From an uncultured archaeon (GTDB lineage: Archaea > Asgardarchaeota > Lokiarchaeia > Sigyniarchaeales > SOKP01): a stretch of 21,759 bases of DNA. Position numbers and translations under genes: made by a program. The notes below the pieces were generated by a model. The model was not told the DNA's origin, did no database searches, and saw nothing but the letters and a program-made list of their open reading frames with translations. The stretch covers positions 1 to 21,759 of the forward strand of contig CAZGJX010000076.1 of assembly GCA_964525635.1 (NCBI GenBank), given 5' to 3'. This document shows positions 5,292 through 21,659 of this stretch, piece by piece. How positions within the stretch are numbered: the stretch's first letter is position 1; each line of letters opens with the position of its first letter.

Positions 5292-6749
5292 ATGGAACAT
5301 AAAAAAGATATGAAAAAAAAATTAACTTCACAAGGAGGTGCTCCTGTATCAGATAATCAAAATTCATTATCTGCAGGTGAACGGGGACCCTTATTAATGC
5401 AAGATGTGCATTTATTTGAGAAAATGGCACATTTCAATAGAGAAAGAATACCAGAAAGGGTAGTTCACGCTAAAGGTGCTGGAGCATATGGTACTTTTAC
5501 AGTAACTCATGATATCACAAAATATACTAAAGCAAAAATATTTTCAGAAATTGGTAAAAAAACCAAACTTGTAGTTCGATTTTCAACTGTAGCAGGTGAA
5601 AGAGGTTCTGCAGATACAGTTAGAGATGTTCGAGGTTTCGCTATTAAGTTTTATACAGAAGAAGGTAATTGGGATTTAGTAGGAAATAATACACCCGTAT
5701 TTTTTATAAGAGATCCATTAAAATTTAGTGATTTTATTCATACACAAAAACGCATGCCACAAACAAATCTTAGATCTCAAATAATGTGGTGGGATTTCTG
5801 GTCACTTGTTCCAGAAGCTTTACACCAAGTCACAATTTTATTCTCTGATCGTGGTATACCTAGAGGATTTCCACATATGAATGGATATGGTAGTCATACT
5901 TATAGTTTTCTTAATGCAAATGATGAGCGTTTCTGGGTAAAATTTCATTTCAAAACTTTACAAGGTATAAAAAATTTCATGCAAGCTGAGGCAGATGAAC
6001 TTGCTGGTAAAGATCCAGACTGGGCAACGCGAGATCTTTTTGAGAGTATTGAAAGAGGTGATTATCCAAAGTGGGAATTATCTATACAAATCATGCCAGA
6101 GAAAGAAGCTGAATCATACAGATGGAATCCATTTGATTTAACCAAAGTTTGGCCCCATGGAGATTATCCTCTTATAAAAGTAGGGATAATGGAACTTAAT
6201 AAAAATCCTGAAAATTATTTTGCTGAAGTGGAACAGGCAGCTTTTGATCCATCTAATAGAATTCCAGGTATTTCTTTTTCACCAGATAAAATGTTACAAG
6301 CAAGGACTTTTTCTTATGCCGATGCACATAGATATAGACTAGGAGTTAATTACCAAAGCTTACCTGTTAATAAACCAAAAACAGGTAATGTTCACAACTA
6401 CCACCGGGATGGATCAATGAGATTTGATGGAAATAGTGGCCCTGCAGTAAATTATGAACCAAATAGTTTTGGCGGTCCTACAGAAGATCCTGCTTTTAAA
6501 GAACCTCCCTTAAAAATCTCAGGAGATGCTGATAGTTATGATCAACCCACAACGGACGATGATTTTGTCCAACCAGGCAATCTCTATAGATTATTACCCT
6601 CTGATGAACAAGATCGTCTTATTGAGAATCTTGTTAATAGTTTAATAACCATTCCCAAAAACATTCAGGAGCGAATGGTAAACCATTTCTTAAAAGCAGA
6701 TAAGACATGGGGAGAGAGAGTAGCAAAGAAATTAGATGTAAATATTTAA
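5292..6749 (+). CDS. katA: Monofunctional small-subunit haem catalase
   Basis: Distal His motif [35 protein letters not shown], and proximal Tyr motif [14 protein letters not shown]; 485 aa. Alternative start at 5310. Confidence 0.97.
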
Positions 6750-9222: not shown

Positions 9223-11358
9223 ATGAGTGAAAATAAATATGAATTTAAAGCAGAAATTAAAAAATTGCTAGATATTCTTAGTAAATCTCTTTATCAACAT
9301 AAAGAAGTATTTTTAAGAGAGTTAATAAGTAATTCGGTTGATGCACTTAAGAAAGTTCATTTTATATCTCTAACAGACAAAGATATTCAAGATTTTAATG
9401 AAGAATTGAAAATTGAAATTATTACTGATTCAATTAACAACACTATTACTGTTAGAGATACAGGAATTGGTATGAATAAAGATGAATTAATTAGCAACTT
9501 AGGAACAATTGCAGGAAGTGGTTCTCAAAAGTTCTTGGAGCAATTAAATCAATCTCAACAAATAGATTCAAAAAAGCTTGATTTGGATGTTATTGGTCAA
9601 TTTGGAATTGGATTCTATTCGATTTTCATGGTTGCAGGTAAAGTAAATGTTATTTCTAGATCCTATAAAAAAGAAGAAGAAGCTTATCAATGGGAATCTG
9701 ATGGAACAGGAGAATTCACAATAACTAAAAATGATAAACAAAAACGTGGAACAGATGTGATATTATATATAAATGATGAGGATAAAGAATACTTGGATAA
9801 GTTTAAAGTTGAATCTATAATTAAGAAATATTCAAATTATGTATCCTTTCCAATTTATGTTTCTGAAATAAAAAAAGAAGAGAAAAAGGAAGAGAAAAAG
9901 GAAAAGAAAAAGGAAGAGAAAAAGGAAGAGAAAAAGGAAAAGAAAAAGGAAGAGAAAAAGGAAGAGAAAAAGGATGAAAAAGAAGCAGAAGAAGAGATAG
10001 AACCTAAACCTGTGAATGAATTAAATCCTTTATGGAAACGAGATAAAAATGAGATAAAGGATGATGATTATAAAAATTTCTATCATTTTATTTCTAATAG
10101 ATATGATGAATATACTCATATGATTAATTATAAAGTTGATGGAAGCGTACAGTTTCACACTATTCTCTTTATACCAGAATCAGATCCTCTCACGTTTTTA
10201 AGACCAGATGATGAATATGGATTATCTCTTTATTCTAAAAGTGTTATGATTATGAAAAATTGTAGTGAACTTATTCCAAAATGGATGAGATTCATTAAAG
10301 GTGTTGTAAATTCAGATGATATACCATTAAATATCAGTAGAGAAACGATACAAACAAATCGAGTAATGATGAAGATTGAAAAATTGTTGATTAAAAGAAT
10401 CCTTCGAGAGTTTGAAGAAATTGGAGAAAAGGACCTTGATAAATTTAAGAAGATATGGAGCAATTTTGGTATATATTTTAAGGAGGGAATGATTTCAGAT
10501 CCCTTTAGAGCAGATAAGCTCTTGAATTATCTTAGATTTAAAACCTCTAAAACCACTGATGATGAATATAGAAGCTTGGAAGATTATATAAAAGATTTTC
10601 AAGAGGATCAAAATGAGATCTACTATCTAGTAGGAGAAAATATTAGTACGATGAGACAATCTCCACACTTAGGTTATTATAAGGAAAATAACTTAGAAGT
10701 TATTTTATTTGATGAACCAATTGATAATTTTTTAATGATGAATATCCATGAGTATAAAAAATCTGTTGGAGAAGGCGATTCTGCCGAAATAATAACTCAT
10801 AAATTTTCACCTGTAGATGTAACTGAGCCTGTTAAAGATAAGGAGAAAGACAAAGAAGATGAAAAAGAAAAAAAAGAAAAATCAGATATAAAAATTCCTG
10901 AGAATATTAAAAAATTTTTGGAACATGTAAAGTCAATATTAGGAGAAAAAATATTAGATACAAAAATCTCTGATAGGCTTTATGATAATCCTTGTCGACT
11001 GGCTAATCCTACAGGAGGAATGACTTCAAGTATGCAAAGAGCTATGAGATATTGGACGAAGACGGAGTCAGGAAAAGAATTTCAAGCACCCCGTAAAATA
11101 TTAGAATTTAATCAAGACCATCCATTAATTAATGGACTTATAGAACTTTTTACCTCAAATCCTGAAGATAGTAAAATAAAACCAGTTATTAACCAATTGT
11201 TTGAAAATTGTCTCTTAGCAGAAGGAGATCTCCCCAATCCATCATTAATGGTACCTCGAATTAATCAATTAATTGAGATGTTGATTACTGATAAAATAGA
11301 ATTTAGTGAATCAAAAGATAATTCAGATGATACTAAAAAAGAGATTAAAGAGAGTTAG
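9223..11358 (+). CDS. htpG: Molecular chaperone HtpG (Hsp90)
   Basis: GHKL motifs FLRELISNSVDA, DTGIGM, NLGTIAGSG, IGQFGIGFYS, and middle-domain DIPLNISRETIQ. Confidence 0.97.
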   Translation: MSENKYEFKAEIKKLLDILSKSLYQHKEVFLRELISNSVDALKKVHFISLTDKDIQDFNEELKIEIITDSINNTITVRDTGIGMNKDELISNLGTIAGSGSQKFLEQLNQSQQIDSKKLDLDVIGQFGIGFYSIFMVAGKVNVISRSYKKEEEAYQWESDGTGEFTITKNDKQKRGTDVILYINDEDKEYLDKFKVESIIKKYSNYVSFPIYVSEIKKEEKKEEKKEKKKEEKKEEKKEKKKEEKKEEKKDEKEAEEEIEPKPVNELNPLWKRDKNEIKDDDYKNFYHFISNRYDEYTHMINYKVDGSVQFHTILFIPESDPLTFLRPDDEYGLSLYSKSVMIMKNCSELIPKWMRFIKGVVNSDDIPLNISRETIQTNRVMMKIEKLLIKRILREFEEIGEKDLDKFKKIWSNFGIYFKEGMISDPFRADKLLNYLRFKTSKTTDDEYRSLEDYIKDFQEDQNEIYYLVGENISTMRQSPHLGYYKENNLEVILFDEPIDNFLMMNIHEYKKSVGEGDSAEIITHKFSPVDVTEPVKDKEKDKEDEKEKKEKSDIKIPENIKKFLEHVKSILGEKILDTKISDRLYDNPCRLANPTGGMTSSMQRAMRYWTKTESGKEFQAPRKILEFNQDHPLINGLIELFTSNPEDSKIKPVINQLFENCLLAEGDLPNPSLMVPRINQLIEMLITDKIEFSESKDNSDDTKKEIKES
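9877..9972 (+). repeat. In-frame tandem repeat of 8 x 12 bp (GAAGAGAAAAAG / GAAAAGAAAAAG) within htpG
   Basis: Unit order A-A-B-A-A-B-A-A (36-bp higher-order period), purine-only on the + strand, encoding EEKK/EKKK. Confidence 0.95.
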
Positions 11359-11542: not shown

Positions 11543-12718
11543 TTAAAAACTAATTCCAGCCTGAGCGGACATTAACAGAAGTTCCGTCATTGTACCATTA
11601 TAATCATTTTCTATTTTGAAATAATTGTTTTTTCGAGTAAAAGGAATACTATAAATAAATTTATGGTTTTCAGTAGCAAATGGAACTTTTTCAACAAATT
11701 CCTTCATTAAAGGATGAAATTCAACTGGAATATTCTCTTTGGTCGGACATACCATACCGAAACATATACGTTCTATTACTTCAGATTCCCAGTTAAAAGT
11801 AAAATATATAGTCCTAGCGTCACAACATTTTTCTAATACTTCAGATGAATTTATTTCAAAGTTTAAATTTTCGAGGATATTTTTGTACAATTCTAGGCTT
11901 GATGTTTTTGGTTCTTTAACCATAAAGTAGATGTTCATAGATTTATGTAAAAAGTCTAATGCGATTAGAGAAAATTTGGTTAATCCAAATTTCTTAAAAA
12001 ATTTTGTATAATTTACAATACTCTTAGGTATATTTGACATAGAATATAAATTTTTGATTGATGTTGGAGCGATTAGAGACCATATTTTAGCTAATCCTTT
12101 TCTTACATCTAAATCTACCCCATAGCCTAGCACATTAAATTTCTCTTTGATTTCGGATAACATTTTATGCAAAGGGTGCCCGTTTAGATTGATTAAATCA
12201 TTATTTATTGCAATGACATAAGGATCTGGATTATGTGGGTTCATAAGTTCCACATATCGTACAGAAATATCTCTTAAATCTTTATGAAGGGTGGTTGTTC
12301 TAATCGAGAGCGATGAACCTGTGAAAAAAGTTTTGTAAGCGTTAATTACCTTCCAAATTTTTTTCTCATTACATTTTACTCCTGTGAAATTACTGATTTT
12401 TTTAAGATCTGAGACTAAGATATCCAAGTCTATATTGTGTTGGAAGCCCCCTTTGACCAATACTAAGTATTTCTCATAATCTACACCCAATTTTTTCAAA
12501 TCATCTATCATAGTCGGTTGAAACGCAGGCGGAGTGACTTCAAGCAGAGCAACAATTAAGTCAACTTCTTTAATTTGTATTCCCCCCCTTTCAGTACATC
12601 TTTTAATTGTTTTATCATAAAGCGCACTTGATATAATTGGTCTAACAGATTCAGGCATATTTAGAACTACATTATTGTATAAACTTTCAACTTCTGGGTT
12701 CCATTCCAATTTTATCAT
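11543..12718 (-). CDS. ABBA-type aromatic prenyltransferase (NphB/CloQ-like) with N-terminal DUF2621/PCP_red-like module, copy 2
   Basis: SIRTTT, DPY..A, GHP, YGVDLDV..GLAKIW, LDF..KS.NIYF, IYFTFNWES..IERICF and YFKIENDY match PT-barrel motifs of the NphB/CloQ family. Start overlaps the upstream stop (ATGA). Confidence 0.82.
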   Translation of the reverse strand: MIKLEWNPEVESLYNNVVLNMPESVRPIISSALYDKTIKRCTERGGIQIKEVDLIVALLEVTPPAFQPTMIDDLKKLGVDYEKYLVLVKGGFQHNIDLDILVSDLKKISNFTGVKCNEKKIWKVINAYKTFFTGSSLSIRTTTLHKDLRDISVRYVELMNPHNPDPYVIAINNDLINLNGHPLHKMLSEIKEKFNVLGYGVDLDVRKGLAKIWSLIAPTSIKNLYSMSNIPKSIVNYTKFFKKFGLTKFSLIALDFLHKSMNIYFMVKEPKTSSLELYKNILENLNFEINSSEVLEKCCDARTIYFTFNWESEVIERICFGMVCPTKENIPVEFHPLMKEFVEKVPFATENHKFIYSIPFTRKNNYFKIENDYNGTMTELLLMSAQAGISF

Positions 12719-14115
12719 CTCTTTTTATAATTTATTATTTTTCCATCTACATGTTTATGGTCGTTTTCATACCAACAGTATGGAAATGAACCTAAGATAT
12801 CACCTGTAAGTGCTTCAGTAAGAACTCTACAACCTCCACCACATAATTCAAGATGAGAACAATCTGCACATTTCCCGTGACGCTTTCGATCTCGGATGTC
12901 TTTATAGATCTGGGAATTTAATACATCTATAAAATCGTCAGTTAAAGCATTTCCGAGGGTCGTTGCTGTAGGATACCCGGTGGGATATATAGTCCCATCT
13001 ACTTCAATACCCATCATTGCTTTACAAGCTTGGCACCCAACACCCCAATCAATGGTGGCCAATTCCTCATCATTTTTTGGTACTTCCATAAAAGGTGTCA
13101 TTTCATAAATCTCAAACACAGGAATATTGCCCGCTTTTCCATTTCTGATCGCATTAATAGCTCGATTGTACTTGAATTCGTATAATCTCTTATACTGTTC
13201 CATATTAAGGCCAATTTCAGACCAGTATTCATCCGCTCGGCTACCCTTTTGTTTAACTACAGGTCTTAGAAAAGGAGCAGCACCCCATTTTTCTGCTAAA
13301 GCTTTCATTTCTTCTAATTCATCAATATTTTGTCTCATAATAGTCATGGAAGCACATACAAATAAGCCATACTTATGACAGGTTTTTATTGCTTTTTCCG
13401 CATAGGATAATGAATTTGGAAATCCACGTATTTTATCGTTCTTTTTTGGATCAGCACTATCAAAACTAACAAATACATGACTCATCTCGTAATCTTTGCA
13501 CATTTTCGCAAATTCTTCTGTAAATTTAACTCCATTGGTTATTATCGCATGATTATAATCTTTTTCGCAACAATATTTCATAATTTCTCCAATATCTTTA
13601 CGTAGAGTAGGCTCCCCTCCAAACCATATATAAGTTCCATGTCTCCCCTGCTTTTGTAGACTTGTTTCAAGATTTTCAATAATTTGGCACCATTTCTTTA
13701 CTGAAAGTTCGTCTCGAGGTTTGCGATCTGTTGCACAATGAATACAGTTCATATTGCATTTATCGGTAAGATACATAGCGAAATGTATCACACCAGGACG
13801 GAAGCCCTCAGCAAACTTTTCCCAAGAAACATTTAATCGGTCTCGATATTTTTTAATATTGATATATCGTTCCATATCCACTCCAAGAGATTCTAACTCC
13901 TCGACGATTTTCGATTTAAATGCTTCAGGAACAACATCAAAAGTCCCTAATATAAAATCCGATAAATTCACAATCGAACTTTGTCGGTCAATGCATCGTT
14001 TTTCAACTGCTTTAATTGTTGTTGGTTTTATTATTGAATGAAGGTTTTCTGGGAATTTTTCTAAAAGTTTTTGAAAGGTGTCTTCCGCTTCTTGATTCCA
14101 TTCTTTTTTTCTCAT
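12715..14115 (-). CDS. Radical SAM/SPASM protein with N-terminal DUF2621/PCP_red-like module, copy 2
   Basis: CNMNCIHC (CxxxCxxC), FGGEPTLR, ITNG, VSFDS; SPASM GCQAC...CADC...CGGGCR...PYC. Confidence 0.92.
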   Translation of the reverse strand: MRKKEWNQEAEDTFQKLLEKFPENLHSIIKPTTIKAVEKRCIDRQSSIVNLSDFILGTFDVVPEAFKSKIVEELESLGVDMERYINIKKYRDRLNVSWEKFAEGFRPGVIHFAMYLTDKCNMNCIHCATDRKPRDELSVKKWCQIIENLETSLQKQGRHGTYIWFGGEPTLRKDIGEIMKYCCEKDYNHAIITNGVKFTEEFAKMCKDYEMSHVFVSFDSADPKKNDKIRGFPNSLSYAEKAIKTCHKYGLFVCASMTIMRQNIDELEEMKALAEKWGAAPFLRPVVKQKGSRADEYWSEIGLNMEQYKRLYEFKYNRAINAIRNGKAGNIPVFEIYEMTPFMEVPKNDEELATIDWGVGCQACKAMMGIEVDGTIYPTGYPTATTLGNALTDDFIDVLNSQIYKDIRDRKRHGKCADCSHLELCGGGCRVLTEALTGDILGSFPYCWYENDHKHVDGKIINYKKR

Positions 14116-14254: not shown

Positions 14255-16261
14255 TTAATTTCCCATTGCATTTTTGTGAGCTTTTGCATATAGTGTGATT
14301 AGGGGTATACACTCCATCAGTTTTTCTGTATCTCCCTCCACAGCATATTTTCCACTCATAGTTGCTTTAATTGGATCCTCTTCTCCTAATAATATCTTTT
14401 GAATTGTGTCAAAATCTGTTTTATGAATCATCTTTGGAGCGTCCAAATCTGAACATTTACCCATCCCCCATTCTATTTTGGAATCAATAAAAGCTTGCCA
14501 GAAACTCATCTTTGAATTGTTTGTAACTTGATATTCAATTACTAAAGGAGCAATAGAAGTAATCAATGTTTGTAATTCCGATAGATCACTAAGTGAATTC
14601 ATAAATTGAGAGATGTAATCTTTCCAATCACCTTCATCTTTCAGATCTACTGAATCTTGAGTAGTGCTATTAGCAGTCTCTTCCAATATTTCTGAACTAT
14701 AAGGTTGTGCTTTTATAGTCTCAACTTCATCTTCACTCAAAAATTTTTTCAAATCAATTTCATTCTCAATCATTAGATCAAGTAAGTCATGTTGAAATTG
14801 TGGTGGCACTAATTTAATTAGAATCGCAATGACAAGATCCTTCGTTACTTCATCCATCTTTTTTCGCTCAGCAGTTCTTTCTGAGATATTTCTAATAGCT
14901 TTAGAAGCAGATTTTTGCATATTTTCAGGAATTAGTTCTAATGTCTCTTCAAAAAATTTTAGGGCTTCGGGTGTCCATGAAATTCCATAGATAGTCCCCT
15001 CTTTTGTGTCTTCTATTGGGCTGGTGATTGTTCTTTCATCTTTCGGTAAAAATTGTTGACCTGCGTTAAAATAATTATACAAATAAGCAGAATATTTTTT
15101 ATATGTTTCCGTTTTCTCTTTAGAAGGTAAGAAATAGGCCTTATTTACCCATTCATAGCAATACTTACATTTAACACCGCAATTTTCTATACATCTTGAA
15201 CCTTGAAATGGAAGATTTTCAATAAAACCATCCAATTTATCACATCTTAATTGTGCATCAAAATCCGGAATCCCAATTTGTAAATCATCATCACTTTGAT
15301 AACCTCCTATTTCTTCTTGAAGGGATGTATATTCAGGAAATTGACTTCCAGCTAGTTCCAAGGGATTTGTTTGAAAATTATATCCATTTAACATATTCCC
15401 AAGATTAGAATCATAGAATCTTTTTGCATATGCTTTTAAAGCATGAATTATCCAAGGTGTATGATATCTCCTTCCAGATATTTTATAATAGTTAATTCCT
15501 GTTTTTAGATAATAATCGATATCAGAAGGTTGAATCCATTTCGCCATCATAATCTGCTCTGGATTGAACGCTTTGGCACTTTGACATGCAATAACTGACC
15601 AATCATTATAGTATCCTTTTAATACATGATGCTCTTGACTTGCATGTGAAGTTTCAGAATAATGGAAAAATCTAAAAGGACACTCATTTACACAAGCATC
15701 ATTAAGGAGGATTTCCAAATCACAATCTAGTTCCTCTCTGAATTTTTTAAGCAATGGAAAATTTCGATTAACCATTACTGACAAGTTTATTATTCCTTCT
15801 TTCCCAATAATTTCTTGCCAATCATAACCCATAGTAAGTGTAGTTACTTCAGCAATTAAGGAAACTTTTACCTTGATATTAGGATGATAATACCGTACAA
15901 ATCTCGCTAAATAAGGATCTACAATCGTGATATATTCAACGCCCAGATCATCTAACCAATCCAATTCTTTAAGAGCTTTGTCTTGCGCTTTTGAATTAAA
16001 CTTGCTGAAGCCAAGACACTTTCCATTCCATAGCCATGTAAATCCCACACCTATATCATGGACTCTATTAATATAATCTTCCATCTCAGAGTAATCTTTT
16101 CTTGGCATTAAGAAAAAGGGACGCCCAGAGCCTGTAAAGCCAAGATCTCTTGTACCATAAAAATCATTTACAACTTTGAGTAAATCATGATTTTTTTCTA
16201 TCTCATCTAATAAATCTTTCTTCCAATTACATGGAACTGATATACGTAATGAATTAACCAT
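14255..16261 (-). CDS. U32-family Fe-S protein fused to an internal DUF2621/PCP_red-like module and a C-terminal SCP2 domain
   Basis: U32-like core (FYG...GSGR, LDWLDDLGV..ITIVDPYL, NRNF, LLNDACVNECPF..H, YKISGR) and Cys cluster CIENCGVKCKYC. Helical module at aa ~429-507. SCP2-type tail TDFDTIQKILLGEEDPIKATMSGKYAVEGD. Confidence 0.8.
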   Translation of the reverse strand: MVNSLRISVPCNWKKDLLDEIEKNHDLLKVVNDFYGTRDLGFTGSGRPFFLMPRKDYSEMEDYINRVHDIGVGFTWLWNGKCLGFSKFNSKAQDKALKELDWLDDLGVEYITIVDPYLARFVRYYHPNIKVKVSLIAEVTTLTMGYDWQEIIGKEGIINLSVMVNRNFPLLKKFREELDCDLEILLNDACVNECPFRFFHYSETSHASQEHHVLKGYYNDWSVIACQSAKAFNPEQIMMAKWIQPSDIDYYLKTGINYYKISGRRYHTPWIIHALKAYAKRFYDSNLGNMLNGYNFQTNPLELAGSQFPEYTSLQEEIGGYQSDDDLQIGIPDFDAQLRCDKLDGFIENLPFQGSRCIENCGVKCKYCYEWVNKAYFLPSKEKTETYKKYSAYLYNYFNAGQQFLPKDERTITSPIEDTKEGTIYGISWTPEALKFFEETLELIPENMQKSASKAIRNISERTAERKKMDEVTKDLVIAILIKLVPPQFQHDLLDLMIENEIDLKKFLSEDEVETIKAQPYSSEILEETANSTTQDSVDLKDEGDWKDYISQFMNSLSDLSELQTLITSIAPLVIEYQVTNNSKMSFWQAFIDSKIEWGMGKCSDLDAPKMIHKTDFDTIQKILLGEEDPIKATMSGKYAVEGDTEKLMECIPLITLYAKAHKNAMGN

Positions 16262-17405
16262 TTATTGCACCTCGTTCAATTTTTTGTAATTTTTTTTCTA
16301 TTACCGATAGTACTTCCTTTTTCACTGATACATTCGCTTCATTACATTTTTTTATATAATCCTTGCAAAATTCATTCATTTCATCCTCCTCTGGATAAAA
16401 ATGTTCATAAGGAAAATTTTCAACAAATTCCTTAATTACATAATCTGGAAGTGAAATCATTGACTCTTCGATTGTCTTTTCTAAGCCATAATTTCCATAT
16501 GGATTTGGTATATTAAGGAATTTACAGAAATCACCTTCAAACGATTTGTTCATATAAGAATTAAGAATATCTAATGTCTTTTCTTTAGAAAACCCATATG
16601 TAAAAAGTAGAAAAGTATCATATCCCATATTCTCATATTTTTCAATGTTAAATGGAGATATCCATCCTGCTTTTAGAATCCGTTCTGGTTCTTCTAAACG
16701 CTTTTTCCAACATTCTAATAAAGGAAAATCAAATGCATTTTCAACATCAGATATCTCAATCTGATTAGAAGATACAGGAGAATCCATAGTTCTATGACTT
16801 TGCATATTATGGTGATCAAACCAATAAATGCATCCCCAATTACATCCCAAATTAAGGGGCAATATGTAGCTTGTATCGCTAATTTTTTGATTTTCTTCTT
16901 GAATTTTTGTGAGATTATTCATTACATAGGAATATCTTAAGATATCCGGGTGTAAGATAATCGATTGAGATCCAATGTTGAAATAGAGTTTAGCACGATT
17001 TGTTGATGTTACAAATTGGGCATAGGATAAGAAAATGTTTAATGACGGATAATTTTTCTTTATAAATGCTAAGATATTAGGCGAAGAAACTAGTACATTT
17101 TCAAAGCCTAATTCAATCATATCCTCAAGAAATTTTCGATATGCCCTAAAATGATCAACATAAGATTCTAGATTTCCTTGGCATGAAGAATCAATGCCAA
17201 AAATAGGAGTTAATCCCTTATCTTGCACAAATTTAGTATAGTTCTCAAATTCTTCACGATCTGGTAACTTTTCCGGCAAAAAAATTGACCCATTTCCTAT
17301 GGGATTATGTGGCGTATGTAATATAATGTGCGTCACAGGAAGTTCCTTTTTTGTAATAGCGGAAATTAATTCCCTATTATAATCTCCTTCAATTATAAAT
17401 TTCAT
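16254..17405 (-). CDS. Divergent U32-family protein
   Basis: Colinear with the neighbouring U32 core (IGNGS, VLVSSPNIL, LNLGCNWGC-x5-H-x5-H, AGWISP) but lacks KISGR. Stop overlaps the next start by 8 bp. Confidence 0.72.
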   Translation of the reverse strand: MKFIIEGDYNRELISAITKKELPVTHIILHTPHNPIGNGSIFLPEKLPDREEFENYTKFVQDKGLTPIFGIDSSCQGNLESYVDHFRAYRKFLEDMIELGFENVLVSSPNILAFIKKNYPSLNIFLSYAQFVTSTNRAKLYFNIGSQSIILHPDILRYSYVMNNLTKIQEENQKISDTSYILPLNLGCNWGCIYWFDHHNMQSHRTMDSPVSSNQIEISDVENAFDFPLLECWKKRLEEPERILKAGWISPFNIEKYENMGYDTFLLFTYGFSKEKTLDILNSYMNKSFEGDFCKFLNIPNPYGNYGLEKTIEESMISLPDYVIKEFVENFPYEHFYPEEDEMNEFCKDYIKKCNEANVSVKKEVLSVIEKKLQKIERGAING

Positions 17406-17498: not shown

Positions 17499-18674
17499 TT
17501 ATAGATCTAATCCTCCTTCTGCCCCCATTTTTAAAATTTCAATCATCGTTCCTGTATAATCGTTTTCTACTTTGAACCAGTTTTCGTTGGGAGAAAATGT
17601 TAAACTATAAATAAAAGTCCGCTTGTCAGTAGCGAAAGGAGCTTTCTCGACAAAAGTTTTCATTAATGGATGAAAATGTATAGGGACTTGATCTTGTCCT
17701 TCAGGACAGAGAACTCCAAAGCAAACTCGCTCTATTTTATCAGATTCCCAATTAAAAGTGTAATAGATAGTAGTGGCCTGACGACACCGTTCCATTACTT
17801 CAGGAGGACCCACTTTATAATTAAGATCTTTAAGCATAGCTTCACACTTTTCTCGTGTCACCTTTCCCGGTTTTACAATGAAATATATATTCACCGTCTT
17901 ATGACAAAAATCGAGAGCAAATAAGCAAAAATCAGATAAACCATGTTTTTTAAAATAATCTTTCAGCGTTAATATGCTCTTCGGAAACGTTTCCATTGAA
18001 TAGACGCCTTCGACAGGACAAGGTGTGATAAAATTCCAGAGTTTTGTTAATCCTACTCTAACATCCAAATCTACGCCATGACCCATAATTTCAAACTTAT
18101 CGTAGATCTCATAGAACATTTTATGGAGAGGGTGTCCATTTTTTTCAAGTAAACCCTCATTAATAGCTGTAATATAGGGATCAGGATCATGTTTTACCAT
18201 CAACTCAACATATCTTATTGAAACATCTCTTTCTTCTTTTGGTTTAGTAGTAGTTCTAATTGAGATTGAAGAACCGGAGAAAAAAGTTTTATAGGCATTT
18301 AGAACCTTCCAGATTGCTTCTTCATTACATTTTACTCCAGTGATGTCTCCAATTTTATTTAAATCCTCAACGGTTTGATTTAGATCTACATTATTTTTAA
18401 ATCCACTTTTAACATAAACCATGTATTTTAAATAATCAATACCTAATGATTTTATATCTTCAATCATTCCAGGCTGTATCGCTGGGGGAGTTACTTCAAA
18501 TATAGCTACTACTAGATCTCTCTCTGCAATAGTTTTTCCTTTTCGATCCTCGCATTTTTTTTCTGCTGTGTTAAACAGAACTGGTCCAATAATAGGTCTA
18601 ACATTAACGGGCATTTTCAGAACCATATTTTCATAAAGTTGTCTAACTTCTGGTTGCCATTCCATTTTTTTCAC
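17499..18674 (-). CDS. ABBA-type aromatic prenyltransferase (NphB/CloQ-like) with N-terminal DUF2621/PCP_red-like module, copy 1
   Basis: SIRTTTKP..RDVSIRY, DPY..A..EGL, GHP, GVDLDV..GLTKLW, LDF..KTVNIYF, IYYTFNWES..IERVCF, WFKVENDY. Same 391-aa length as its paralogue. GTG start (or ATG at 18665). Confidence 0.83.
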   Translation of the reverse strand: MKKMEWQPEVRQLYENMVLKMPVNVRPIIGPVLFNTAEKKCEDRKGKTIAERDLVVAIFEVTPPAIQPGMIEDIKSLGIDYLKYMVYVKSGFKNNVDLNQTVEDLNKIGDITGVKCNEEAIWKVLNAYKTFFSGSSISIRTTTKPKEERDVSIRYVELMVKHDPDPYITAINEGLLEKNGHPLHKMFYEIYDKFEIMGHGVDLDVRVGLTKLWNFITPCPVEGVYSMETFPKSILTLKDYFKKHGLSDFCLFALDFCHKTVNIYFIVKPGKVTREKCEAMLKDLNYKVGPPEVMERCRQATTIYYTFNWESDKIERVCFGVLCPEGQDQVPIHFHPLMKTFVEKAPFATDKRTFIYSLTFSPNENWFKVENDYTGTMIEILKMGAEGGLDL

Positions 18675-18690
18675 TTTTATAATTTTATTT

Positions 18691-20106
18691 TTATTTTTTT
18701 GATTGAATTAATTTTGTTTCCTTCTCTGGAGATAGATAGTCTTCATAGTCATGATCATTCTCATGCCAACAATATGGAAACGATGCAAAAAAGTCACCCG
18801 TTTCACATTCGGCATGCACCCTACATCCTCCACCACATAATTCAAGATGATGACAAGTAGCACATTTTCCTGTTCGCTTTCTATCTCTGATATCTTTAAA
18901 CAGTTGAGAATTCATTATTTCTTCAAAATTCTGTTCTAAGACATTTCCAAGGATTAGTTCAGAAGGATAATCACATGGAAAAAAATCTCCATTGACATCA
19001 ACACCTGAGACCAAACGACATGCTTGACATCCAACGCCCCATTCTAAAGCTGTAAGTTCTTCATCATTTATAGGATATTCCATAAACGGTACCATATCAA
19101 ATGTATTAGCTCTATTTAGAGTAGTAGCTTTTCCTTCTCTTATGGCTTCAACCACGTTTTTATACTTAAATTCATAGAATTCTTTATATTGTTCAGGAGT
19201 TAATCCAATTTCATCCCAATTATTTTTAGCATTTCTTTGCTTAATTACGGCTCTAAAAAATGGGATGGCGCCCCAACTTTCGATTTTTTCTTTTAGATCC
19301 TCAAGTTCATCAATGTTTATTCTCATTATTGTTGGTGTGCATATGACAAAATGGCCATACTTTACAGCTAATTTAACTGCTTTCTCTGCAGTCTCATATG
19401 CATTTGGCACACCTCTTATCTTTGCAGCTCTCTCAGGGCGAGTACTATCAATACTAATAAAAATATGGCTCATCTTGACCTCTGCTAATAATTTTGCAAG
19501 ATCATCGGTAAACATTATACCATTTGTCGCTATTGCTTGAAGATATTCTTTTTTATAACAATAATCGATTAAATCCTTAAGATCTTTTCGAAGAGTAGGC
19601 TCTCCTCCAAACCATATATAGCAACCTTTTCTTCCTTGCTTATTCAATGTTTGCTCGATATTTTCCACAATCTGAATCCAATGCTCTGTAGAGAGTTCTG
19701 GACGCGCATCATGAACCTCAGCAGCACAATGCATACATTTTTGATTACAGCGATCAGTAAGATACATTGTTATATGATAAACATTAGGTAAAAATGCTTC
19801 CCCTATTTCATCCCAAGATTTATAATACTTTTGTCTTATCTCTGAAAGTTGGACATAACGTTTAGCATTAATTCCTAATTTATGTAATGTACTCACTAGA
19901 GTAGCTTTTAAAGACTCTGGTGTAATTTTTACTAATGCTGTTATCAAATCGTCTTTGCTTACATAACCAGAATTCCTTAATCTCGCATTCTCCTCTGCAT
20001 TATCATGTAAGAGAGGCTTTACTGCGGAGCGGAATCCTTCGGGAACTTGATTTGTAAGAGTTACAAATAGTTCATTTACTTCACTTTTCCATTCCAAATT
20101 TTTCAT
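18691..20106 (-). CDS. Radical SAM/SPASM protein with N-terminal DUF2621/PCP_red-like module, copy 1
   Basis: CNQKCMHC, FGGEPTLR, ATNG, ISIDS; SPASM GCQAC...GDFFPC...CATC...CGGGCR...PYC. Confidence 0.93.
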   Translation of the reverse strand: MKNLEWKSEVNELFVTLTNQVPEGFRSAVKPLLHDNAEENARLRNSGYVSKDDLITALVKITPESLKATLVSTLHKLGINAKRYVQLSEIRQKYYKSWDEIGEAFLPNVYHITMYLTDRCNQKCMHCAAEVHDARPELSTEHWIQIVENIEQTLNKQGRKGCYIWFGGEPTLRKDLKDLIDYCYKKEYLQAIATNGIMFTDDLAKLLAEVKMSHIFISIDSTRPERAAKIRGVPNAYETAEKAVKLAVKYGHFVICTPTIMRINIDELEDLKEKIESWGAIPFFRAVIKQRNAKNNWDEIGLTPEQYKEFYEFKYKNVVEAIREGKATTLNRANTFDMVPFMEYPINDEELTALEWGVGCQACRLVSGVDVNGDFFPCDYPSELILGNVLEQNFEEIMNSQLFKDIRDRKRTGKCATCHHLELCGGGCRVHAECETGDFFASFPYCWHENDHDYEDYLSPEKETKLIQSKK

Positions 20107-20196: not shown

Positions 20197-20943
20197 TTAA
20201 CAAATTAGAACCCCTATTTTGCTTATATATATAGAAGAATTTTTAAAAAGAGTATTTAGGAAATTTTGTAACCATTCTAAATTTCTAGAATAATTAGTTA
20301 AAAAAGAGAAGAAGCAAGAACATAGAGGAAAGAAATATGGCAAAAAATAATAATGTTTTTTATAAAAAATAAGAAAAAAATAGAAAATTTCATTTTGAAA
20401 GAGTTTATACCGGAATTTTTCCTCACCTATAGTTCCCTTAAATTCCTCATAATTTATGCTATTAAAGTTTTCATTATTCTTTTGGTTTAAATGATGAAAT
20501 TCAAATAAATACCCAATATTATCATTTAAATCAAAATTATTAGAATTATTATCAAGATTTTTAAAATTATCATAAGAGCAAGGGAAATAAATATCATATT
20601 CATATAAATATCCTTCAATATAACTTTTTTTTATATATTGATAAAATAATCTTTCAAAATAACTAGCTAGATTAATAAGAATAAAAAAATCAATCACTTG
20701 ACCAAGGCTTAAATAAATTTTAGCATTTTTTTCTGTAATAAACCAAAAAATATTGATATCTGAAAACCATGGAACAAAAATTGAACTATTGGATGAAATA
20801 TAATTTTTTAATAAACTATCAAAATCTGTAATATTTTGTATGAAGAGATATAAAAATGAGATTGGTAGAGATAATGTAAGGAATACCAAAATTATAATAA
20901 CTAAAATCTTTAAATTTTTGGATTGTTTTTTATATTTGTCCAT
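20197..20943 (-). CDS. Hypothetical membrane protein
   Basis: 248-codon ORF in very AT-rich DNA with an N-terminal TM helix and an aromatic-rich C-terminal segment; no recognisable motif. Confidence 0.5.
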   Translation of the reverse strand: MDKYKKQSKNLKILVIIILVFLTLSLPISFLYLFIQNITDFDSLLKNYISSNSSIFVPWFSDINIFWFITEKNAKIYLSLGQVIDFFILINLASYFERLFYQYIKKSYIEGYLYEYDIYFPCSYDNFKNLDNNSNNFDLNDNIGYLFEFHHLNQKNNENFNSINYEEFKGTIGEEKFRYKLFQNEIFYFFLIFYKKHYYFLPYFFPLCSCFFSFLTNYSRNLEWLQNFLNTLFKNSSIYISKIGVLIC

Positions 20944-21125: not shown

Positions 21126-21659
21126 TTAAGATTTAACTTTATGTTCTTTAAATTTCATATAGATAGAAGTTTTAGAAATATTATATTTATAATCTCTAGG
21201 AAATATTTTTATAATTTCTCTTATAAGATTATCAATTTTTTGTTTGGTTATCTCGGGGTGGGTTTGATTTAAATCAGGATCTAATTTGTGTAAATATACA
21301 GAAACTTCTATTTTAGAATCATTGTTGATCAATAAATTAACAATTTTCTGTAAAAAATCAAGAGATGGGGCATATTTTTTTTTATCTTGTATATCAATTA
21401 CAAATAAAATTTTTTTCGTATTAACCAAATAACTATAGAAATTCTTTAAATATTCATTTATGTATTCTTTTTGACCACCAAACTCCCAAACAATATATTC
21501 TTGATCAATTGCTTGATACTTAATAAAATCAATATGAATAGTAGGTTTTATTTCAGAAAAAGAGGATAAATTACGGAATCCTTGAAAATATTTTAAAATT
21601 GAGGTCTTTCCACTATTACTGAGTCCCAATAGTAACATTCTAGAATAAGGTTTAGACAT
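21126..21659 (-). CDS. Ras-superfamily small GTPase (Arf/Rag-like, Asgard type)
   Basis: G1 GLSNSGKTS, G2 KPT, G3 WEFGGQ, ILFVID, G4 HKLD, G5 KTSI. Confidence 0.9.
   Translation of the reverse strand: MSKPYSRMLLLGLSNSGKTSILKYFQGFRNLSSFSEIKPTIHIDFIKYQAIDQEYIVWEFGGQKEYINEYLKNFYSYLVNTKKILFVIDIQDKKKYAPSLDFLQKIVNLLINNDSKIEVSVYLHKLDPDLNQTHPEITKQKIDNLIREIIKIFPRDYKYNISKTSIYMKFKEHKVKS

Follow-up and report, generated by a model that had tools for sequence, protein, structure and literature searches.

The window analysed here is an entire contig (C76, 21,759 bp) of a Lokiarchaeial Asgard genome (4.45 Mb in 245 contigs, about 30% G+C). Between positions 14255 and 17405, its minus strand carries two overlapping genes that encode paralogous proteins of the U32 family, a short one and a long one, the latter extended by a second cysteine site, a helical module and a lipid-binding SCP2 domain. 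The pair is a candidate for an archaeal enzyme built like the UbiU-UbiV-UbiT hydroxylation system of Proteobacteria. Its features are the following.

16254-17405, minus strand: short U32 paralogue (P0002, 383 aa), recognised by Pfam, family profile and fold
14255-16261, minus strand: long U32 protein (P0001, 668 aa), with a U32 barrel, a distal four-Cys site, a helical module and an SCP2 domain
16254-16273, minus strand: junction of the two genes, with an 8-nt overlap ATGGTTAA (16254-16261) and a Shine-Dalgarno-like hexamer GAGGTG (16268-16273)
16710-16844, minus strand: short motif C188-x3-C192-x5-H198-x5-H204 ... C232, with an upstream C75 at 17181-17183
15584-15694, minus strand: long motif C190-x3-C194-x5-H200-x5-H206 ... 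C226, with C82 and C180 upstream
15158-15193, minus strand: distal C357-x3-C361-x3-C365-x2-C368, in the long subunit only, a predicted second metal or iron-sulfur (Fe-S) site
14741-14980, minus strand: helical module of about 80 aa (aa 428-507), DUF2621/PCP_red-like, below Pfam cut-offs
14303-14575, minus strand: SCP2 lipid-binding domain (aa 563-653), recognised by Pfam and Foldseek

A preceding reading of this DNA, made from the sequence only, had described two overlapping U32 genes, and both open reading frames (ORFs) are indeed present at these coordinates with their shared eight nucleotides. The hexamer GAGGTG lies 6 nt upstream of the ATG of the long gene and, together with the overlap, suggests that translation of the two genes is coupled.

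Fold, Cys/His motifs and SCP2 domain of the U32 pair

The long and short proteins are U32 paralogues. Their scores against Pfam U32 (PF01136) are marginal, 24.4 bits for the long and 22.6 bits for the short protein at a cut-off of 22.4, and the assignment was therefore checked independently by profiles and fold. Family profiles built from 27 long and 30 short homologues match the U32 structure Mk0906 (entry 5d88 of the Protein Data Bank, PDB) with E values of 2.4e-7 and 5.2e-6, respectively; single-sequence searches of the PDB return nothing significant for either protein, 5d88 being reached by the family profiles only. The AlphaFold model of the short protein (predicted local distance difference test, pLDDT, 85; predicted template modelling score, pTM, 0.88) superposes on 5d88 with a VIA Z of 18.4 and a root-mean-square deviation of 2.9 Å over 225 residues, the next TIM barrel following at Z 13.0. 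Foldseek also ranks 5d88 first for both models (E 6e-8 and 2.4e-6). The two families are related to each other by hhalign with a probability of 98.1% over 341 columns, in an alignment that pairs C82, C190, C194, H200, H206 and C226 of the long protein with C75, C188, C192, H198, H204 and C232 of the short one. Family alignment and fold match thus bear out the paralogy that had been read from the letters. A collagenase or peptidase reading was considered and set aside, as it is a historical family label without a supporting feature here; a peptidase role of the pair is very unlikely.

Written out, the long motif is C190-VNE-C194-PFRFF-H200-YSETS-H206 ... C226 and the short one C188-NWG-C192-IYWFD-H198-HNMQS-H204 ... 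C232. These residues are invariant within the 27 long and 30 short homologues, so that the common C-x3-C-x5-H-x5-H signature with a later Cys, proposed from the two sequences, extends to both families. One upstream Cys is invariant as well in each of them (C82 in the long, C75 in the short protein), and C180 is invariant in the long protein only. The cluster ligated by three Cys and one His that the sequence-only reading had envisaged is not needed, since it had missed this fourth invariant Cys in each subunit. Among 139 representatives of the wider subfamily, R47 is kept in 129, C82 in 122, C190 in 135, C194 in all 139, H200 in 133, H206 in 129, C226 in 138, K260 in 137 and R264 in 135, and each of the four distal Cys in 136-138. 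Judged by such conservation, the two near-invariant His must matter as ligands or in catalysis.

The distal site of the long protein reads C357-IEN-C361-GVK-C365-KY-C368, and a KISGR motif occupies its residues 260-264. The short protein is devoid of KISGR, has R47, K260 and R264 replaced, and has lost the equivalents of C357, C361 and C365, its distal site being reduced to one Cys (C347). It had been described as the degenerate subunit of the two, and it has indeed lost residues and a Cys site that are otherwise invariant in the subfamily. The mean column identity of the short family amounts to 63%.

The canonical four-Cys motif of U32 proteins is CX6CX15CX3/4C (PMC6747719). E. coli TrhP, RlhA and UbiU show this pattern, as do two canonical U32 proteins of the window's own genome (contigs C2 and C69), and neither the long nor the short protein has it. 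UbiV displays another arrangement, CXnCX12CX3C, with a far-upstream first Cys, C39 (PMC6747719), which the C82-Xn-C180-X9-C190-X3-C194 series of the long protein resembles. The spacing, claimed to differ from that of UbiU and UbiV, does so as far as the canonical motif is concerned, but may be closer to that of UbiV than had been stated. When the long family is compared by hhalign with an alignment of six canonical U32 sequences, the match to UbiV (87.7% probability) ends at residue 186, before the Cys motif, and therefore gives no residue-by-residue mapping onto the UbiU/UbiV ligands. In a MAFFT alignment, KISGR of the long protein aligns with KIEGR of UbiU, TrhP and RlhA; UbiV does not have the motif.

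The C-terminus of the long protein is an SCP2 domain, as had been anticipated. Pfam SCP2 (PF02036) matches it with 22.7 bits when the full-length protein is scanned and with 26.9 bits when the domain is taken by itself, above the cut-off of 21.3, and the domain is modelled with a pLDDT of 83-93. Among solved SCP2 structures it comes closest to UbiJ-SCP2 (TMt 0.62-0.69), namely to 6h6o (Foldseek E 4.6e-5, TMt 0.62), with 6h6n and 6h6p also retrieved; compared with E. coli UbiT by hhalign, the SCP2 part reaches a probability of 1.2%, i.e. no specific UbiT kinship. A split form of the long protein also exists: a gene of about 470 aa codes for the U32 barrel and the helical module, and its immediate neighbour codes for SCP2 alone (about 136-160 aa). 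These separate SCP2 proteins match residues 530-681 of the long profile with E values of 1e-61 to 1e-70. In a sample of 301 genomes across the phylum, the split form (loci G192:C63, G207:C4, G065:C8, G150:C329, G258:C10, G141:C1, G204:C13 and G219:C19) is commoner than the short/long pair, with about 17 further genomes; it is seen in many other members of the window's taxonomic family. This alternation between fused and split SCP2 parallels the argument that Pelosi et al. used for the adjacency of ubiT and ubiU and for the Zymomonas ubiT-ubiU fusion (PMC6747719).

Subfamily, gene pairing and modelled complex

An exhaustive HMMER search retrieves 1280 representative clusters with E <= 1e-3, and 223 of them also pass E <= 1e-30. 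The majority have 360-500 aa and an identity of about 30% to the long protein. Ten of them were scanned against NCBIfam, and none passes any cut-off, the best model being that of TrhP with 20-43 bits against a cut-off of 534. On the same model, the short protein reaches 18.1 bits and the long protein has no match; neither matches the UbiU (NF047963, at least 440 bits) or UbiV (NF047965, at least 275 bits) model at E <= 0.01. In a quick IQ-TREE tree (LG+C20), E. coli UbiU, UbiV, RlhA and TrhP fall on one side with the genome's two canonical U32 proteins, and the C-x3-C subfamily falls on the other, with a support of 99. This split and the missing NCBIfam matches agree with the earlier assignment to a different U32 subfamily, and the pair is not orthologous to UbiU-UbiV; the UbiUVT-like layout would therefore have arisen independently.

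Within the tree, the long clade (support 100) is nested among single-gene members of the subfamily, and the long protein is a standard member to which two domains have been added. With a support of 99, the short clade has a very long stem of 2.87 with open forks and a long-branch warning, and its sisterhood with the long clade is not claimed; the short protein is a strongly diverged yet well conserved derivative. The subgroups of both clades correspond, the window pair going with the BAJALOKI pair and P0007/P0056 with P0137/P0134. Elsewhere, subfamily members belong to a cluster for a type II polyketide synthase, to several clusters rich in B12-dependent radical S-adenosylmethionine (SAM) genes, in one of which three U32 genes stand in tandem amid radical SAM and B12-dependent radical SAM genes, and to a glycosylated, methylated natural-product-like cluster (L016:3981-15788; L017:4418-8115; L001:1-20633). 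A general tailoring role of the subfamily in anaerobic secondary metabolism is suggested.

The two genes travel together. Of the 301 sampled genomes, the six that have a full-length long gene are also the six that have a strong short match; all belong to the window's own taxonomic family, and no short gene occurs unaccompanied by a long one. In eight of nine copies the short gene immediately precedes the long gene on its 5' side, and the ninth long copy starts at a contig edge. Short and long homologues also carry adjacent locus tags in public metagenome-assembled genomes (MAGs). Homologues of the window proteins come from Asgard MAGs only, labelled Promethearchaeota/Lokiarchaeota, Thorarchaeota or Hodarchaeota.

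A complex of long residues 1-420 with the short protein and three 4Fe-4S clusters riding along was modelled in three runs, together with three controls. The interaction prediction score from aligned errors (ipSAE) is 0.93, 0.93 and 0.94 for the pair and 0.00 for all three controls; 58 of 80 solved complexes attain that mark, as do 2 of 110 mismatched pairs, a calibration that is only rough here, as own alignments were used and ligands rode along. Contacts agree by at least 97% between runs, and the partner pLDDT is at least 90. The metal-motif loops lie in the modelled interface, with residues 81-86, 191-199, 225 and 355-364 on the long side and 74-83, 189-197 and 231 on the short side. The distal Cys loop of the long protein (355-364) touches the short chain, and its residues 84-85, beside C82, touch H204 of the short protein. 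Sequence searches of the PDB find no solved U32 heterodimer, and recall of a known complex by the predictor is therefore unlikely. On this modelling, the long and short proteins very probably form the heterodimer that had been postulated from their sequences, an assembly also supported by the strict adjacency and co-occurrence of their genes.

Biosynthetic neighbourhood and genomic setting

The pair belongs to a single tight gene row on the minus strand, which runs from 20197-20943 down to 11543-12718 and contains, in addition, the following genes.

20197-20943, minus strand: conserved membrane protein of 248 aa at the head of the row, without Pfam family; its homologues occupy the first position in the C15, Thor and BAJALOKI clusters
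18691-20106, minus strand: radical SAM/SPASM enzyme with an N-terminal helical module (Pfam, NCBIfam)
17499-18674, minus strand: ABBA (Orf2-type) aromatic prenyltransferase (PTase_Orf2, 186 bits)
12715-14115, minus strand: second radical SAM/SPASM enzyme, downstream of the long U32 gene (Pfam, NCBIfam)
11543-12718, minus strand: second ABBA aromatic prenyltransferase (PTase_Orf2, 166 bits)

The nearest solved structures of the 17499-18674 prenyltransferase, the copy submitted to a PDB search, are AmbP3, EpzP, AmbP1 and NphB. The helical module of the long U32 protein matches DUF2621 at E 3e-4 and PCP_red at 0.027; across the proteins that carry it, DUF2621 is matched at 3e-5 to 0.014, all below cut-offs. 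It recurs at the N-termini of the two radical SAM/SPASM enzymes (18691-20106 and 12715-14115) and, more weakly, of the 11543-12718 prenyltransferase, as well as in genes of the C15 cluster described below, and the N-terminus of the 17499-18674 prenyltransferase has no Pfam match. The shared module may serve in docking or in recognition of the substrate.

A second, larger paralogous cluster, C15 (about 5171-23000; L011:5171-19744, L012:572-4992), is present in the same genome. It comprises three B12-dependent radical SAM genes, a 435-aa U32 gene with helical module, a 243-aa membrane protein, two radical SAM/SPASM enzymes, two radical SAM/SPASM-SCP2 fusions, an ABBA prenyltransferase, a short U32 protein (P0109) and a long U32-SCP2 protein (P0032). 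SCP2 is therefore fused not only to the U32 proteins but also to two radical SAM/SPASM enzymes of this cluster, which points to a hydrophobic intermediate passed between enzymes. A Thorarchaeota MAG (L003) shows the C15 layout with a free SCP2 gene and an FAD_binding_4/CCG pair. In another Lokiarchaeial MAG, an orthologous six-gene cluster is followed (L018:8696-16530) by two 3-hydroxy-3-methylglutaryl coenzyme A (HMG-CoA) synthase genes, an FMN_dh-family gene, whose product may be, from its Pfam family, a type-2 isopentenyl diphosphate isomerase, and an FA_hydroxylase-family gene; these genes tie the cluster to isoprenoid supply. A related archaeal cluster, with two U32 genes, B12-dependent radical SAM genes and a radical SAM/SPASM-prenyltransferase fusion, abuts a complete archaeal shikimate pathway and a chorismate mutase gene. 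Chorismate mutase makes prephenate, and both chorismate synthase and chorismate mutase are encoded in the window genome. The two canonical U32 genes of this genome (contigs C2 and C69) score 202-211 bits on the TrhP model and can cover RNA modification.

Neither MqnA nor NuoH is found in the genome, which is rated 100% complete; UbiA, UbiE and UbiG were not searched. A single UbiD-family match is present, which is uninformative in archaea. A classical respiratory quinone was rejected as the product on these two absences and on the patchy distribution of the pair, and the product is probably not such a quinone. A methanophenazine-like pathway was discarded as well, the Orf2 prenyltransferase family not being found in the Methanosarcina acetivorans control genome. 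Searches of the literature on U32 proteins, UbiU/V/T, ABBA prenyltransferases and radical SAM enzymes in Asgard archaea or Lokiarchaeota return nothing on the cluster or the subfamily.

The proteins heading the clusters have 243-305 aa (window 20197-20943, minus strand; L011:10286-11017; L003:510-1241; L018:258-1175). Their N-terminal part of about 110 aa is conserved and hydrophobic, with 27-37% identity across clusters, and their C-terminal part is of low complexity and variable; no Pfam family was matched by these membrane proteins. A gene for a small Arf/RagA-like GTPase is found at most a few kb away from the cluster in three genomes (window 21126-21659, minus strand; L003:18587-19195; L018:12388-12927), and may be a coincidence or a conserved neighbour. 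On the plus strand, the start of the contig carries what looks like an IS630-like insertion sequence (197-1326), split in two frames into a helix-turn-helix ORF (HTH_33/HTH_32) and a DDE_3 transposase ORF. The same strand carries a full-length haem catalase (5292-6749; Pfam Catalase, 665 bits) and an Hsp90/HtpG homologue (9223-11358). The catalase, in an otherwise anaerobic-looking genome, hints at oxygen exposure.

Proposed reaction, alternatives and known systems

UbiU and UbiV assemble into a heterodimer in which each subunit carries one [4Fe-4S] cluster (PMC6747719), and the oxygen is donated by prephenate (PMC10990095). By analogy, the two proteins would together make up a single heterodimeric metalloenzyme of U32 type, probably with Fe-S centres, which would at the least tailor a prenylated aromatic intermediate. 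The long protein would be the catalytic subunit, as it keeps R47, the Cys/His site, K260 and R264 of KISGR and the second four-Cys site, and its fused SCP2 domain would hold the hydrophobic substrate. The short protein, old, fast-evolved and conserved, would be a non-catalytic or accessory subunit, of which nothing but the interface and the Cys/His site has been retained, and would serve as a structural or electron-transfer partner, a part comparable to that of UbiV, likewise devoid of KIEGR, next to UbiU. The reaction would most likely be an O2-independent hydroxylation with prephenate as oxygen donor, as in UbiU-UbiV-UbiT, RlhA and TrhP, and the substrate the aromatic ring of a prenylated intermediate supplied by the neighbouring ABBA prenyltransferases and radical SAM enzymes. 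We put the probability that the pair is such a UbiUVT-like, O2-independent hydroxylase of a prenylated aromatic, acting in the way described, at about 55%. Hydroxylase activity, Fe-S content and a lipid substrate are suggested by knowledge of the family and by gene context. The narrower claims, i.e. U32 paralogues, an obligate gene pair, one degenerate subunit and an SCP2 domain, are held with high confidence. To our knowledge, no enzyme outside the U32 family hydroxylates an aromatic ring with oxygen from an organic donor, which for U32 proteins is prephenate.

Several observations weigh against the hydroxylase proposal. With the CX6CX15CX3/4C motif replaced in both proteins, the chemistry may differ. 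The Pfam U32 scores stand at the cut-off, similarity to the characterised U32 enzymes is very low, UbiU and UbiV models are not matched, and the TrhP model is matched with only 18 bits against 534. No member of the subfamily has been characterised as to its activity, its metal content or its product. The pair, found in only 6 of 301 genomes, suits an accessory rather than a core pathway, and because a NuoH-type membrane complex and MqnA are not found, a respiratory quinone is not an obvious product. Concerning the complex, the predictor passes close cousins of true partners, and a heterodimer and a paralogue homodimer are not distinguishable by it.

The main rival explanation retains the complex and its SCP2 domain and assigns to them another chemistry, in which a Cys/His metal centre with other ligation would bring about a reduction, a dehydration, an isomerisation or a cyclisation. 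In addition to the replaced four-Cys motif and the marginal Pfam and NCBIfam scores, it is favoured by the two near-invariant His, by the added second four-Cys site and by the long branch that separates the subfamily from all characterised hydroxylases. This explanation is nevertheless rather unlikely, as the U32 proteins with an assigned function are all linked to O2-independent hydroxylation (PMC6747719, PMC10990095), a related cluster adjoins a chorismate mutase gene, and KISGR of the long protein aligns with its KIEGR counterpart in UbiU, TrhP and RlhA. The limits of the predictor leave room for another view, in which there is no heterodimer, each protein acting as a homodimer or alone and the model reproducing a paralogue homodimer interface. 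Many subfamily members are indeed single genes; however, the short gene is never found without the long gene, which it overlaps or abuts, and its product has lost subfamily-invariant residues while staying strongly conserved (63%), as expected of an obligate partner, so that the absence of a heterodimer appears improbable.

The neighbouring genes raise the question of peptide or protein maturation, in the manner of ribosomally synthesized and post-translationally modified peptides. The helical module would then recognise the peptide, the ABBA enzymes would prenylate its residues, the radical SAM/SPASM enzymes would cross-link it and the U32 pair would hydroxylate or cleave it. Two points favour this reading and count against the main proposal: radical SAM/SPASM proteins are typical peptide maturases, the matches including the MftC, PqqE, SkfB and PapB models, and one recognition-like module is shared by enzymes of three folds. 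The conserved protein with a variable C-terminal part that heads each cluster would also fit. These points are opposed by the fusion of SCP2 to the U32 protein and to two radical SAM enzymes, by the kinship of the prenyltransferase with the small-molecule enzymes AmbP, EpzP and NphB, and by the mevalonate and shikimate neighbours of related clusters; moreover, no short precursor gene is seen, the head protein being a membrane protein of 243-305 aa. Peptide maturation is for these reasons held to be quite improbable. Hydroxylation of RNA, as by RlhA or TrhP, with an incidental SCP2 domain, is the least credible of the alternatives and is given very little weight. The TrhP model is the best NCBIfam match of the short protein and of the wider subfamily, but with scores of 18-43 bits against the cut-off of 534; the genome's two canonical U32 genes (202-211 bits) can serve RNA modification, and the pair is patchy (6/301), embedded in a biosynthetic cluster and fused to SCP2.

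Beyond the O2-independent hydroxylase proposed above, a broader reading is conceivable and must be regarded as speculative. The pair would be the founding archaeal UbiUVT-like machine, evolved independently, of a subfamily (about 1300 representative clusters) of general O2-independent hydroxylases in anaerobic natural-product and lipid biosynthesis, the Asgard product would be a novel prenylated, hydroxylated aromatic, i.e. a redox-active quinone-like lipid, and Fe-S clusters would be held between the subunits. Such inter-subunit clusters are possible because the invariant upstream Cys sits at the modelled interface, by the His/Cys loop of the partner.

Only three U32 functions have been assigned, and most subfamilies are uncharacterised (PMC10990095). 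The analysis delimits a large, sharply marked subfamily which, in Asgard archaea, appears to have taken independently the layout of UbiU-UbiV-UbiT, in which one subunit is intact, the other is degenerate and a lipid carrier joins them. It also brings into view a probable biosynthetic pathway, for which no description was found in the literature, that combines ABBA prenyltransferases, radical SAM and B12-dependent radical SAM enzymes and SCP2 domains in the archaea closest to eukaryotes. The two genes also represent a clonable target for the spread of prephenate-dependent hydroxylation and the variation of metal centres in U32 proteins.

Among known systems, the pair is most readily compared with UbiU-UbiV-UbiT of Proteobacteria (PMC6747719, PMC10990095). 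Both include two adjacent U32 paralogues, which form a heterodimer predicted here and shown there, and K-I-x-G-R is kept by one subunit only, as in UbiU-UbiV. The Cys-rich metal motif of the pair includes a far-upstream Cys, as in UbiV, and the SCP2 partner is fused or encoded next door, as for ubiT and the Zymomonas ubiT-ubiU fusion. In both cases the setting is anaerobic and the genome is able to make prephenate. By contrast, the pair has C-x3-C-x5-H-x5-H...C instead of the CX6CX16CX38C or CXnCX12CX3C of UbiU and UbiV, and the long protein has in addition a C-x3-C-x3-C-x2-C site and a helical module. Unlike those of UbiUVT, the host is an Asgard archaeon and the neighbours are ABBA prenyltransferase and radical SAM genes rather than Ubi genes.

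The closest solved structure by both profile and fold is Mk0906 of Methanopyrus kandleri (PDB 5d88), which has in common with the pair a P-x-x-F-F...S-H-A stretch and an upstream T-C-x-G segment. However, this protein of 254 aa lacks the C-x3-C pair (T and D there), the distal Cys, the helical module and SCP2. RlhA and TrhP, for which dependence on prephenate is presumed, have a U32 barrel and a K-I-E-G-R-like motif in common with the long protein, whereas they possess the canonical four-Cys motif, have RNA substrates and act singly. In contrast with UbiJ, SCP2 is here fused to the enzyme. The known kind to which the pair can be attached is that of U32 Fe-S enzymes paired with an SCP2 carrier, whereas the subfamily with its metal motifs, the fusion architecture, the archaeal host and the biosynthetic setting are new.

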